Origin: Candidatus Aenigmatarchaeota archaeon
GTDB taxonomy: Archaea > Aenigmatarchaeota > Aenigmatarchaeia > CG10238-14 > SCSR01
Assembly: GCA_038998335.1 (NCBI GenBank)
Contig: JAVZHQ010000002.1
Location: 74,689 to 138,688, forward strand
Length of the DNA stretch: 64,000 nucleotides
Reading direction: 5' to 3'
The position numbers are program-made. Positions 51,001 through 54,000 of this stretch are shown here, one piece after another. Every line of letters begins with the position of its first letter. The first letter of the stretch is position 1.

Positions 51001-54000
51001 TCTAAGATTGTTTGCTACTTTAGCCATCCTTTCTATTTCTTCTTTAGTCAAAATCTCTTCTGGTAAGAACTTGTTTTTCAACTTATGATTTAACTTAATC
51101 CATTCTACTTCTTCAGGATAAGTATTTGAGTTTCTCAACCATTTATAAAACCTCTTTAGCTCGCATTTAATCGCAGTTTTAGATTTCTCACTTCCGTACC
51201 TATTCTCTACTTCACTAACAACAGCTATGATATCCTCTTTTGTAGCTTCTGTAAATGGTTTGTTGAGAATTTTTGCTATCGTGGACAAAGCCCAAAGAAC
51301 ATTCCTCAAAGTAGCTTTTCTGAAGCCGTTTGCATTAAGAAGATTGAAGAACTTGAAGATAAGCTGTTTGTTCTCTTCGCATATAGAAGAGTTTTTAATT
51401 CTCTCAATATCTTTTTCCAAGCTTCTGGCAGTATTTAAGCTCATAATTTTGCCTACCTTCTTTTTAGCCTAAATATGCCAGAAGAAATAATACTAAATAA
51501 CTACCATAGCTTTATGTAGTTAAGGCAAAGTAATTCTTTTATTTTTTCTTTGTTGTTTATAATAAAAATTAGTAAAATTAAGATTTTCTCAAAAAATTAT
51601 TTCTGCTTGCTTGCAAAATAAGCTACCCCAATTCCTAGAAGTGCAAAAGCAAAAGCTATTACACCCAAAACCCAAGCTTGCTCTTTTGCGAATATCAAGA
51701 AGAAAAAAACTATTGGTATAAATATACCTGCAAGAGCAGGAGCAATTCCAGTTATATCATGTTCTTTTTTCATACTTAATGCTTGTTTTACAAGCTTATA
51801 AGCATTGTTTAACTATCAAAAGTTCAAAACAAACTTGTAAGAATTAATCAAGATTCCCTAAAATATTTAAATAAGCTTTACAAATCAAAATTCTAGAAAA
51901 GTTTAAATAATTTAACTCAATAACACAAGAGAAGTGGTATTATGAAAATTGATTTAGAAAACATAGCAAAAGAAGTTTTTAAGAAAAAACCTTTGGTAAT
52001 AAAAAAAATAGACAAAAATCTAATTAAAGTTTTCTATAAAGGTAAAAGTCCAAGAAACACACCAAAACCAATAATTCTTCCAAAAATAATAAATTTGGAT
52101 GAAGAAATTATTGAGAATGTTGGAATGTACATTGGTGATGGAACTCTCTCACCAACCAGAAAACATCAAATAGAATTTACTACTATAGATGTAGACATGG
52201 CAAAAAAATTCCTCGATTTTTTAACGAAAAGATGGTGTGTTAAAATACAAAATATAACCTTTATTTTAAAGTACAACAAAGGAAACAAAAAAACAATAAA
52301 AGAAAAATGGAAAAAATATCTAAATGTCCCAAGTGAAAAACTTCTAGTTAAAAAAGAAACTAAATATAATGCTCGAGATTCTCTGACAATTATTGTTAAC
52401 AGCTTGATTTTTACTCAAGTATTCAAAAAATTTATTAAAAAATCACTACCATTAATTAAACTAAATTCTAAATTAATAAAAGCATTTCTAAGAGGAGAAT
52501 TTGCAGCTGATGGAAAATTTATAGTAGAAAAAGATACCAATACCTACTATATCTCTGAAATAACCTTCTGTTATAACTATCCTAAAGAGTTATGGTTACG
52601 GAATTACTTAGTCGAATGCCTAACGAAAGAAGGAATAACAAAAATCAATGAAAACCGAAAAGGCTTTATTAGAATTACCGGCTGGAATAATTATTTTAAA
52701 TTATGGAAGATGGGAATTTTTAACTGTTGTAAGAGAAAAAAAGAAAAATTTCTATCAACGATTAAACAATCAAAAATTCATCTTATGGTAGATGTTGAAA
52801 CAATTAAACAAATTATAAATTCTTCGAGTCTGACCAAAAAGGCCATAGCAAATAAAGTTGGTATAAATAGATCAAATCTTTTTAGAGTTCTAAATGGTAA
52901 ACAACTTATGACAATTGAACAATTTAATGCACTTACTCAATTAATTGATAATCATTTAAATACTTATCAAAATCAAATAAGTAAAATTAGGATTGGTAAA
53001 CTTACTTATTTGCCATTTTCCCGAGAATTTATAAATTTTGTTGCAAAAGAAAAATTGATAAAAGGTGATAGGTAAATGCAAATAGCAAGAATAAAACTTT
53101 TAGGAAGAGACCCAAAAGAATTGGATAGCATTTGCAATGAAATAAAGGAAATAGCAAAAAAATTAGGTGTAGATTATAGAGGACCGATTCCCTTACCAAC
53201 AAAAAAATTGAAAGTAGTAACTATGAAAACTCCTTGTGGCGACGGGACACTAAACTAGACATCTAGTTTAGCCCGAAAGGCCATGGAAATGCTACTTTTG
53301 ATAGATGGGAGATGAGAATTCATAAGCGTCTAATAGATGTTAAAGCTGATGAAAGAGCTTTAAGACAAATAATGAGAATTAATATTCCTACTAATGTTCA
53401 CATTGAAATCAAGCTTTTAGGTTAATTTTTAACTTTTAAAAAAATAACTTTTTCTTATGAAGAAAAAGTTGGTAATAGTTATTTCTGGCCCTCCTGGAGT
53501 TGGAACATCAAGCGTAGCAAGAGAAATAGCTAAAAAATTAAAGCTAAGATATCTTTCACCTGGAAAAACCTACAAAAGTTTTTTGAGTGAAAAAGAAGCG
53601 AAAGCAGCTTTGGAATTCTGGAAAACTGAATTTGGAAGAAGTAAAAAATTACATAAAGCCTTAGATGAAAGCCAAGTTAAGGAAGCAAAAAAAGGTAACC
53701 TAGTAATTTGTGGTAAGCTTTCAATTTATTTTCTCAAAGACTTAGCTGACTTAAAAGTTTGGTTAGAAGCTCCCTTAGAAATAAGAGCAAAAAGAACTGC
53801 AGAAAGAGATAATATTCCTTTTGAAGAAGCTTTGAGACAAATAAGTGAAAGAGAAAATATTGAAAGAAAAAAATGGAAAGAAATATATGGTTTTGATTAT
53901 TTCAACCAAAAAAAAGATGCTGACCTTGTTTTAAATACTTCAAACCTAACTCTTGAAGAAACTGTAAATAAAATTCTAGAGTTTATGAAATCAAAAAGCT

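Follow-up and report, generated by a model that had tools for sequence, protein, structure and literature searches.

LAGLIDADG endonucleases are known mobility partners of archaeal bulge-helix-bulge (BHB) introns. Such introns are on record for two archaeal mRNAs: that of cbf5 lies within the coding sequence, that of HVO_1309 in the leader (PMC2738675, PMC7714728); before HVO_1309, cbf5 was the only one of its kind to be reported (PMC7714728). The crenarchaeal cbf5 pre-mRNA introns, found in Desulfurococcales and Sulfolobales, have cDNA support for their cleavage, and the rule stated for them places each cut after the second and before the third residue of the bulge (PMC2738675). A full-text search of the literature returned no report of such introns in the genes of uS10, Alba, FBP aldolase/phosphatase or RtcB. 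We describe here short inserts, candidate BHB mini-introns, in these four genes and in cbf5 of a hot-spring archaeon of the Aenigmatarchaeota, whose genome (G000) is a 9-contig bin of 90% completeness. The uS10 gene lies in the window, the stretch of 64,000 nucleotides that was analysed; positions are those of the window unless contig C1 is named.

The interrupted uS10 gene

The uS10 gene occupies positions 53076..53425 of the forward strand and carries a 29-nt insert at 53249-53277. Its open reading frame (53076-53258, 60 aa) ends at a stop codon within the insert, and the remainder of the gene is in another frame. Exon 1 (53076..53248, +), delimited by a solver that uses homology only, comprises codons 1-57 and the first two bases of Thr58; exon 2 (53278..53425, +) takes in the third base of Thr58 and all further codons, the stop included. 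They match separately positions 1-52 (53076-53246, E 4.3e-15) and 53-98 (53279-53422, E 8.4e-11) of the Pfam profile Ribosomal_S10 (PF00338), both above its cut-off of 21.2 bits, and together they make up a full-length match whose halves are exactly one codon apart in all 30 uninterrupted relatives fetched. Excision of 53249-53277 gives a uS10 protein of 106 aa. The split profile match, the frame change and the restored protein bear out the initial annotation, in which uS10 was described as broken by an insert of this length. The gene is present in a single copy, and a contig from a DNA run of another, independent study crosses the insert without a gap.

The predicted cleavage motif spans 53236..53284 (+). 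It has an outer helix GUGGC/GCCAU (53236-40 with 53280-84), a central 4-bp helix CGGG/CCCG (53243-46 with 53272-75), a 5' bulge ACA (53247-49) and a 3' bulge AAA (53276-78). The mini-intron proper (29 nt, 53249..53277, +) is composed of the third base of the 5' bulge, a 9-bp inner hairpin (53250-53271), the intron strand CCCG of the central helix (53272-53275) and the first two bases of the 3' bulge. The minimum free energy of the motif is -25.5 kcal/mol (z -4.8), a stability equalled by 0 of 200 shuffles. The inserts had been said to fold with two 3-nt bulges around a 4-bp helix; the helix is there in all of them, but in the minimum-energy fold of uS10 the 3' bulge is relaxed to a 4x2 internal loop and is not a clean 3-nt bulge.

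Two sequencing runs labelled metatranscriptomic, which are marked as probably DNA, have no coverage of 53137-53270; two DNA runs were also compared, and no joint was reported. A 151-letter contig of X14, considered as a spliced uS10 transcript, matches only 53279-53322, with 5 differences, then departs, and is read as the gene of a relative.

Other interrupted genes and their distribution

Four further genes of the genome carry inserts: albA (31 nt, C1:675450-675480, minus strand), fbp, which codes for FBP aldolase/phosphatase (23 nt, C1:46651-46673), cbf5 (12 nt with an in-frame TGA, C1:284122-284133, minus strand) and rtcB (18 nt with two TAA). They were found where the initial annotation had placed them and their removal restores the proteins, which gene callers give in truncated form, as had also been pointed out. 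RtcB, Cbf5 and Alba are each encoded at one locus. The cbf5 insert had been listed among the new cases; it is real, but its codon position is the one already known for the intron of crenarchaeal cbf5, so that what is new is its occurrence in another phylum. The folding z values are -1.8 for albA, -2.0 for fbp, -1.2 for rtcB and -3.4 for cbf5, and folding energy by itself is weak support for the albA, fbp and rtcB inserts. A BHB-type insert is present also in one tRNA-Cys gene, and ARAGORN predicts introns in 19 of the 46 tRNAs.

Among 113 related genomes, 9 have an insert in uS10. A count of 10 had been given, which included G087; the uS10 gene of this genome is merely cut by a contig end and its remaining part reads through the site without an insert. 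The inserts recur as had been reported, yet not at one spot with sizes of 28, 29 or 30 nt: they occupy two sites, A (AC|A of Thr; 6 genomes, 28-32 nt) and B (G|AT of Asp; 3 genomes, 32-35 nt), the latter 7 nt upstream of the former. Inserts in cbf5, also recurrent among relatives, measure 12-15 nt and are found in 8 of the 62 family genomes with a match, including 6/6 of the genus, a count that replaces the earlier 5 of 27 resolved loci. Over all mini-introns the size ranges from 12 to 36 nt, and no ORF lies inside. The albA locus of G069 is truncated by a contig end, the fbp locus of G067 contains masked N, and the fbp copy of G090 is divergent and uninterrupted.

Cleavage geometry and compensatory changes

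A single rule was applied to all inserts: a 4-bp helix lies between two bulges, one on either strand; the bulge follows the helix when a strand is read from 5' to 3'; and each bulge is cut after its second base. At the register so predicted, all four pairs of the central helix form in 5/5 inserts of the genome, as compared with 2.5% of 2,000,000 random position pairs, or 0.21% when a flanking helix is added. Boundaries derived from protein homology alone leave one or two equally good choices per uS10 locus, and in 9/9 interrupted loci one choice combines 4/4 central pairs with an inner stem of 5 bp or more. In the 27 loci of the other genes solved from homology, the central helix has 4/4 pairs in 16, 3/4 in 10 and 2/4 in 1. 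The cutting rule coincides with the homology-only boundaries for uS10 and for the other genes alike.

The uS10 inserts represent a small sample of 5 distinct sequences, across which 95.6% of the cells of the motif are paired, against 24-46% in slid registers. Three pairs in all are changed on both sides, two of them in the inner stem, in agreement with the covarying inner stems noted initially, and the central helix shows a G-C to C-G replacement in G032. The covariation score of these sequences is 0.294 against 0.199 in shuffles, and is reached by 3 of 500 shuffles. In fbp the central helix changes from A-U (G000) to G-C (G089), with an unrelated inner stem. The exon arms of intron-bearing uS10 alleles read GGC, GAC and GGC in 5/5, and the same codons are used at 7, 7 and 13, respectively, of 29 intron-less loci; these fixed flanks could equally stem from co-conversion during homing.

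A genome-wide scan that looked for BHB geometry together with open frames joined across it returned 14,456 hits, no excess over the 14,414-14,644 of four slid controls, and an earlier, looser geometry scan gave 13,815. Geometry alone has therefore no predictive power. Since the junctions between neighbouring genes swamp the signal of the scan, the five inserts are a floor; both the noise of such scans and this lower bound had been recognised before.

Splicing enzymes

The only EndA of the genome is an alpha-type protein of 188 aa with both Pfam domains and an inserted loop of the Nanoarchaeum/ARMAN-2 type, as described in PMC5829648. Where the M. jannaschii enzyme has its catalytic Lys (K156), 13/13 EndA sequences read from the order have Ala. 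The genome also encodes the RtcB ligase, with an Archease gene next to rtcB. The alpha4-type EndA is reported to require strict motifs (PMC5829648), whereas the 3' side of the uS10 motif is relaxed and, of the 27 loci of other genes, 10 have 3/4 central pairs and one has 2/4.

The exact geometry, the restored frames, the compensatory changes and the enzymes present make it very probable that the inserts are BHB mini-introns removed by EndA and RtcB. In the uS10 pre-mRNA, exon CGGG would pair with intron CCCG, leaving a bulge on each side. EndA would then cleave after the second base of each bulge, and RtcB with Archease would ligate the exons, which would make the codon of Thr58 whole again and bring exon 2 back into frame. 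The albA, fbp, cbf5 and rtcB inserts would follow the same route. As rtcB itself would need splicing, the ligase would have to splice its own message and each cell would have to inherit active RtcB. BHB mini-introns are the best explanation of the inserts, in line with the earlier proposal that this archaeon routinely splices mRNAs with its tRNA endonuclease and ligase. The word "routinely" goes further than the data: it is an inference, and the LAGLIDADG neighbours of four of the five interrupted genes point to mobile cassettes.

LAGLIDADG genes upstream of the interrupted genes

Four of the five interrupted genes, cbf5 being the exception, and the intron-bearing tRNA-Cys gene are each immediately preceded by a free-standing LAGLIDADG gene. 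The genome, estimated at ~1,100 genes, has eight free-standing LAGLIDADG ORFs, and 5 of them abut a gene with a BHB insert. All five share the strand of that gene and lie upstream of it, at a distance of 43-225 nt from the insert. As a LAGLIDADG gene directly precedes 4/5 interrupted genes, the inserts seem to belong to mobile cassettes rather than to reflect a general habit of mRNA splicing. This adjacency, and the recurrence of the pairing in relatives, are what is new here.

The ORF adjacent to uS10 (51942..53075, +) codes for a LAGLIDADG-like protein of 377 aa that has a helix-turn-helix at its C terminus. The stop codon of the ORF is immediately followed by the ATG of uS10, for which the last codons of the ORF contain a GGTGA Shine-Dalgarno-like motif. 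The match to Pfam LAGLIDADG_3 (E 2.2e-4) scores 21.9 bits, below the cut-off of 22.5, while the ORFs upstream of rtcB, albA and fbp are above the family cut-off with 84.1, 76.2 and 45.1 bits. Two LAGLIDADG motifs with acidic residues are conserved in 5/5 homologues (invariant residues G61, Y63, G65, D66, G67 and F182-G191, with D/E at 190). The structural model has a pLDDT of 73.7 and 9 of its top 10 Foldseek matches are LAGLIDADG proteins, with a best E of 5.5e-5 and weak TM scores (0.14-0.50); the matches include I-Tsp061I (PDB 2dch) and WhiA. A sequence search of solved structures gave no match, and BLASTP of this ORF against the LAGLIDADG ORFs adjacent to fbp and rtcB gave no significant one.

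For uS10, rtcB and fbp the pairing of endonuclease gene and insert recurs in relatives, with orthologous pairs in other genera. A LAGLIDADG-like ORF adjoins uS10 in 3 of the 9 intron-bearing genomes (G000, G091 and G065) and in 0 of the 58 intron-less genomes of the family. At the 15 intron-bearing rtcB loci it is present upstream in 5 and absent in 8; G032 has there a 309-aa ORF without family match and G067 ends with the contig. One intron-less rtcB locus retains a decayed LAGLIDADG copy. For fbp the gene is upstream in 2/2 intron-bearing loci and in 0/1 intron-less locus examined. The LAGLIDADG gene adjacent to albA has no orthologue at E <= 1e-20 in 69 family genomes, and the ORFs upstream of interrupted genes in G032, G075, G056 and G069 have no family match even at E <= 1.

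From this distribution we infer that the free-standing LAGLIDADG genes mobilise the mini-introns. The sequences suggest, with about an even chance of being right, a two-part mobile cassette of DPANN archaea, made of an ORF-less BHB mini-intron and a free-standing LAGLIDADG gene with putative cleavage at the intron site. The endonuclease gene would insert just 5' of a conserved host gene, its last codons supplying the Shine-Dalgarno motif of the latter, and the endonuclease would cut the most conserved coding motif of alleles free of the element. The mini-intron, harmlessly spliced by the tRNA-splicing enzymes of the host, would interrupt the target and render the carrier immune, and repair would copy the endonuclease gene and mini-intron together. 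Such a cassette, if real, would provide a mechanism for intron gain in archaeal protein-coding genes and explain why the introns are spread patchily, why their sites cluster within a few bases, and why decayed endonuclease copies and orphan introns occur.

A rather doubtful alternative, though one to be taken seriously, is that the inserts are spliced BHB introns as proposed and their LAGLIDADG neighbours unrelated passengers or WhiA-like DNA-binding regulators, without a role in intron spread or retention. The 8 intron-bearing rtcB loci that have no LAGLIDADG gene upstream, its lack at cbf5 and the absence of a recognisable one at the albA locus of G075 speak for it, together with the sub-threshold Pfam score of the uS10-adjacent ORF and the presence of WhiA among its fold matches. 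Three of the eight free-standing LAGLIDADG ORFs of the genome (C1:545952-547160, C1:508905-510332 and C1:650906-651775) also have no visibly interrupted gene downstream. Against it, 5 of the 8 such ORFs abut one of the few genes with BHB inserts, all of them upstream and in the same orientation, orthologous pairs recur in other genera, and both LAGLIDADG motifs keep their conserved acidic residues.

Alternatives to splicing

The translational bypass of phage T4 gene 60 is an example of how ribosomes can read across an insert by hopping or frameshifting, without the mRNA ever being spliced. In favour of it, the inserts studied here are short and hairpin-rich, and several have stops right after the take-off point. 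Bypass is nonetheless highly improbable. The uS10 insert lacks matched take-off and landing codons (ACA 53247-49 versus AAA 53276-78), one rule of RNA cleavage geometry is enough to predict every boundary, across five genes and several sites, the covarying pairs join exon to intron, which bypass does not require, and the same kind of insert is present in a tRNA, which is never translated.

We consider it even less probable that the interrupted genes are pseudogenes or artefacts of assembly or sequencing. The genome is metagenome-assembled and incomplete, in several contigs, and the callers truncate the proteins, but uS10, RtcB, Cbf5 and Alba each have only the one locus, and the same inserts are found in other assemblies as well as in the contig from another study. 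In addition, the exons show purifying selection, and in the inserts the loops vary but the structure is retained. The least probable reading is a split gene whose two parts yield uS10 as separate polypeptides: split protein genes are known in Nanoarchaeum, also a DPANN archaeon (PMC3655853), but exon 2 does not open with a start codon (its first ATG, at 53312, is 11 codons in, within the conserved WEMRIHKR), the two pieces are adjacent with frames offset by the length of a structured insert, and the join stays exact while the insert varies between 28 and 35 nt among relatives.

If the inserts are spliced BHB mini-introns, the machinery of tRNA splicing is needed for essential genes throughout a family of Aenigmatarchaeota, and mRNA substrates are processed by an alpha-type EndA that lacks the textbook catalytic Lys. 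Gene callers that cut these genes short would then distort what is concluded on the completeness and metabolism of DPANN genomes. The association with free-standing LAGLIDADG genes, if it holds, makes the origin and movement of introns in archaeal protein genes, a long-open question, directly testable.

Comparison with known systems

The inserts share with the crenarchaeal cbf5 intron their short size, their BHB type and their position in a protein gene, the place of the cut in each bulge, here a predicted one, and the patchy presence among relatives (PMC2738675). They differ by being in the phylum Aenigmatarchaeota (DPANN), where the cbf5 inserts have 12-15 nt and four more genes are interrupted, and by the single alpha-type EndA, in contrast to the crenarchaeal heterotetramer that was linked by the authors to mRNA introns (PMC2738675). 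In Haloferax volcanii, the HVO_1309 transcript has a BHB intron in its 5' UTR and is likewise an mRNA substrate of the archaeal splicing endonuclease; this intron was shown experimentally and, placed in a leader, breaks no reading frame, whereas the cases here are predicted and lie in coding sequence (PMC7714728). Archaeal tRNA and rRNA BHB introns, of which that of I-Tsp061I (PDB 2dch) is an example, have the same cleavage motif, the same enzymes and a LAGLIDADG partner. In the rRNA introns, though, the endonuclease gene is inside a long intron, while here the introns have 12-36 nt and the gene is free-standing, upstream of the start codon of the host gene.

In eukaryotic HAC1/XBP1 splicing, which PMC13149111 mentions, Ire1 cuts RNA stem-loops in a regulatory, stress-induced process that bears no sign of mobility. 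A protein endonuclease cutting at stem-loops and an RtcB-type ligase joining mRNA exons with a change of reading frame would be common to both systems, but Ire1 is not the tRNA-splicing endonuclease. Collaborative homing in phages resembles the proposed cassette in its free-standing endonuclease gene beside a conserved host gene and in the interruption of a conserved motif by an ORF-less intron. The phage introns are self-splicing group I ribozymes and their endonucleases belong to other families, whereas the present setting is a cellular archaeon in which the intron would depend on the EndA and RtcB of its host, with putative cleavage of the intron-less site.

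The uS10 gene and its insert

The window is C2:74689-138688 of the genome under study (G000; 1.01 Mb in 9 contigs, G+C 33%). Its uS10 gene opens with an ORF of 60 codons (53076-53258), the remainder lying in another frame up to 53425. Pfam Ribosomal_S10 matches twice, with profile positions 1-52 at 53076-53246 and 53-98 at 53279-53422; since these matches abut at profile 52/53, the profile is split cleanly by about 29 nt. Removal of 53249-53277 gives a protein of 106 aa, as the initial annotation had claimed, and a whole-genome search found no second uS10 gene in G000. In uninterrupted relatives the two halves are exactly one codon apart at 30/30 fetched loci and the DNA reads ...GGN ACN GGN CAY..., the same as the predicted G000 join. 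A contig from another study's DNA run covers 52400-53335 gap-free, with 13 differences that include the third bulge base, which argues against an artefact. The gene is followed by a cytidylate kinase-like gene (53457-54008, +); ORFs comparable in size alone follow uS10 in the relatives G065 and G062.

The RNA of the insert region folds at -25.5 kcal/mol (z = -4.8; equally stable shuffles 0/200) into an outer helix GUGGC/GCCAU, a 3-nt 5' bulge ACA, a 4-bp central helix CGGG/CCCG and a 9-bp inner hairpin. Helix followed by bulge on both strands is the archaeal bulge-helix-bulge (BHB) arrangement. The shape first ascribed to it is right for the 4-bp helix and the 3-nt 5' bulge; on the 3' side, a 4x2 internal loop takes the place of a clean 3-nt bulge. 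Cleavage after the second base of each bulge, the rule proposed earlier, yields exactly the frame-restoring join. The same cut, after the second bulge base, is described with cDNA support for the crenarchaeal cbf5 intron in PMC2738675.

Inserts in albA, fbp, cbf5 and rtcB

Four further inserts lie at the contig places claimed for them. Their removal gives Alba of 96 aa (31 nt in albA) and FBP aldolase/phosphatase of 367 aa (23 nt in fbp), brings back the Cbf5 motif GHAGTLDP (12 nt with an in-frame TGA) and restores RtcB PDMHFGYGFPIGG (18 nt, in frame with two TAA, C1:120826-120843). A geometry score that pairs the four bases preceding one bulge with the four preceding the other is 4/4 in 5/5 G000 inserts and in 2.5% of 2,000,000 random position pairs of contig C1, or 0.21% when a flanking helix is also present. 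Folding energy alone is weaker evidence than this score: z-scores are -1.8 for albA, -2.0 for fbp, -3.4 for cbf5 and -1.2 for rtcB, and the minimum-energy folds of the first three contain the full BHB motif in part only. The inserts are real and non-random. We consider it very likely that all five are spliced out as BHB introns, a predicted processing well supported by the comparative evidence.

Distribution and covariation among relatives

An S10 model searched across 118 genomes of the order matches in 113, with split matches in 10. The initial count of ten interrupted genes among 113 falls to nine, as the G087 gene is merely cut by a contig end and its remnant reads through the insert site without an insert. 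The G000 site (site A) is occupied in six genomes of four genera, with identical inserts of 29 nt in G000 and G091, 28 nt in G092, 30 nt in G075 and G032, and 32 nt in G054. Site B, 7 nt upstream within an Asp codon, carries inserts of 33, 32 and 35 nt in three genomes of a fifth genus. The insert is not present in uS10 of G089 and G090, both of G000's own genus. A solver guided only by protein identity to an uninterrupted reference narrowed each locus to one or two boundary pairs of equal quality; in 9/9 loci, one of these choices has 4/4 central pairs and an inner stem 5 bp or longer.

Across the six aligned site-A rows (5 distinct), 95.6% of cells are paired, compared with 24-46% after shifting the partner by 1-3 columns. 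Both sides have changed at three pairs, including a central-helix G-C to C-G change whose exon base is a synonymous Gly position, and the covariation score of 0.294 (0.199 in shuffles) was attained in 3/500 shuffles. The exon arms are invariant (GGC, GAC, GGC) in 5/5 distinct intron-bearing sequences; 29 intron-less loci show free variation at the corresponding codons (GGC 7, GAC 7, GGC 13; 30 were fetched and one off-pattern locus was excluded).

The cbf5 insert with its in-frame TGA is found in 8 of the 62 family genomes with a match, 6/6 of the genus included, with constant helix parts and a variable loop. Six of seven solved loci have 4/4 central pairs and one has 3/4; G089 cbf5, for which the anchor pattern failed, was read by eye outside the solver set. 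G075 albA has an insert at the site of the 31-nt one of G000 plus a second of 18 nt, and the albA insert is not present in G089, G090 and G093. At the fbp site G089 carries 21 nt with a central A-U pair changed to G-C and an unrelated inner stem, and G093 has no insert. The rtcB loci examined, out of 61 genomes with a match, were those showing stops or split matches, together with six that are uninterrupted. In 15 resolved genomes rtcB is interrupted, at three sites no more than about 15 nt from the motif PD.H.GYGFPIGG; central pairs are 4/4 in five, 3/4 in nine and 2/4 in one. More than one insert occurs in rtcB of G069 (contig C29, locus L061) and G056 (contig C2, L064; five stops in all). 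The second G069 insert falls within GFD|INCG, presumably a metal-binding motif.

LAGLIDADG genes next to the inserts

Each of rtcB, albA and fbp is immediately preceded, on its own strand, by an ORF that matches LAGLIDADG_3 (E 8e-24, 2.5e-21 and 1.2e-11, respectively), and the predicted products are clearly LAGLIDADG_3 proteins. The ORF ending at 53075 abuts the uS10 ATG and has a marginal LAGLIDADG_3 match and helix-turn-helix matches. Its homologues retain two LAGLIDADG motifs with acidic residues, and the best fold matches of its model (pLDDT 73.7, moderate) are to LAGLIDADG endonucleases and WhiA, with low TM scores. A tRNA-Cys gene with a 34-nt insert in its anticodon loop is overlapped at its start by a fifth LAGLIDADG ORF; the ORF upstream of cbf5 has no family match. 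G000 has 31 LAGLIDADG_3 matches, mostly within very long ORFs that we take to be inteins, and 8 free-standing ORFs, a number that includes two weak ones and the neighbour of uS10. Five of these are followed by a gene whose BHB insert is located 43-225 nt past the endonuclease stop, and the last codons of three such ORFs contain GGAGGTGA or a GGTGA motif just ahead of the host gene start.

Several LAGLIDADG_3 domains per frame are found in frames of 1,009-2,046 aa (for example C1:439077-442439, 534640-536769 and 711081-714716), which look like large proteins with multiple inteins. Frames of 770-1,318 aa suggest inteins in RtcB of G062, G094, G059, G095 and G068 as well. One weak free-standing LAGLIDADG-like ORF (C1:650906-651775, L113:1906-2775, minus strand; 289 aa, E 6.6e-4) is upstream of endA and of a 170-aa ORF whose HEMGHVLGLKH motif suggests a zinc protease; no insert was seen in either. 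About 500 nt upstream of the uS10-adjacent ORF, a 388-aa ORF (50278-51444, minus strand) looks, from its translation alone, like a tyrosine recombinase/integrase, so the region upstream of uS10 may belong to, or adjoin, an integrated element. The gene ahead of uS10 in relatives is instead EF-1alpha.

An identical homologue of the uS10-adjacent ORF immediately precedes uS10 in G091. So does one of 44% identity in G065, 24 nt away from the ATG of a uS10 gene with a site-B insert. Where intron-less genomes have a homologue (16 genomes), uS10 is on a different contig. The ORF thus adjoins uS10 in 3/9 intron-bearing versus 0/58 intron-less family genomes. Relatives of the rtcB-adjacent protein at 49% identity or more are encoded directly upstream of rtcB in 5/5 cases, four of which adjoin an rtcB interrupted at one of three different sites (G048, G066, G047 and G081, the G081 copy having two stops). 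G096 has rtcB without an insert beside a LAGLIDADG wreck with eight stops; its uninterrupted rtcB frame (C25:36533-37091, L116) extends upstream into the decayed C-terminus, where the stretch CLSFKQKELIK is also the end of the G000 endonuclease. For fbp, a LAGLIDADG ORF is upstream in interrupted G089 and none in uninterrupted G093. Counter-examples without a recognisable endonuclease gene are cbf5, albA of G075 and eight of the interrupted rtcB loci. Near the rtcB insert G000 and G032, of different genera, are 95-98% identical, compared with 87-92% further downstream; G030, of G032's genus with insert-free rtcB, is 79-83% identical to G000.

The adjacency of LAGLIDADG genes to interrupted genes is thus observed, and it recurs in relatives. 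We infer that the LAGLIDADG proteins would cleave a site lacking the intron, and that carriers would be protected by the insert. The pattern matches the life cycle of a homing element, in which invasion would lead to fixation, the endonuclease gene would then decay, an orphan intron would remain and the intron would finally be lost.

Splicing enzymes and tRNA introns

EndA, the tRNA-splicing endonuclease, is encoded by one G000 gene (C1:649547-650113, L001:1474-2040, minus strand; 188 aa, both Pfam domains), and its closest solved structure is the M. jannaschii homotetramer 1a79. This single-unit size is found in 19/19 family genomes searched, G000 included; G073 has two matches on two contigs, and forms of about 400 aa occur in some other families of the order. 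An insert GVKLKRGPKAPHEH between the catalytic Tyr and His aligns with that of the Nanoarchaeum equitans and ARMAN-2 enzymes. We take it to be the "L3" loop, which PMC5829648 links to broader specificity in DPANN alpha4-type enzymes. Counting against a case built on an EndA with this loop, the position of the catalytic Lys (M. jannaschii K156) is occupied by Ala in 13/13 order sequences read, the motif there being NIRA[TK], or NIRTE in one. A Lys-rich inserted loop, GVKLKRGPK, beside the catalytic His is kept in all 13. The ligase RtcB is encoded by the interrupted gene, which adjoins that of its partner Archease.

Run with the intron option, ARAGORN gives predicted introns for 19/46 G000 tRNAs, some of which may be wrong calls. 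They include candidate inserts in tRNA-Lys (219-343, -; 29 nt), tRNA-Phe (16480-16566, +; 11 nt), tRNA-Tyr (31286-31400, +; 42 nt) and tRNA-Arg (31660-31747, +; 6 nt).

Comparison with known BHB introns

A literature search mostly outside subscription journals turned up no account of a BHB intron in the genes for uS10, Alba, FBP aldolase/phosphatase or RtcB, and none of a free-standing LAGLIDADG gene paired with a BHB intron. What is new is the interruption of these four genes and the association with endonuclease genes. A 2020 paper (PMC7714728) names cbf5 as the one case on record ahead of the 5'-UTR intron that it describes. The lineage studied here is judged to be Candidatus Aenigmatarchaeota of hot springs. 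Its cbf5 insert is at the position of the crenarchaeal cbf5 intron, as placed in PMC2738675, and extends a known intron site to a new phylum.
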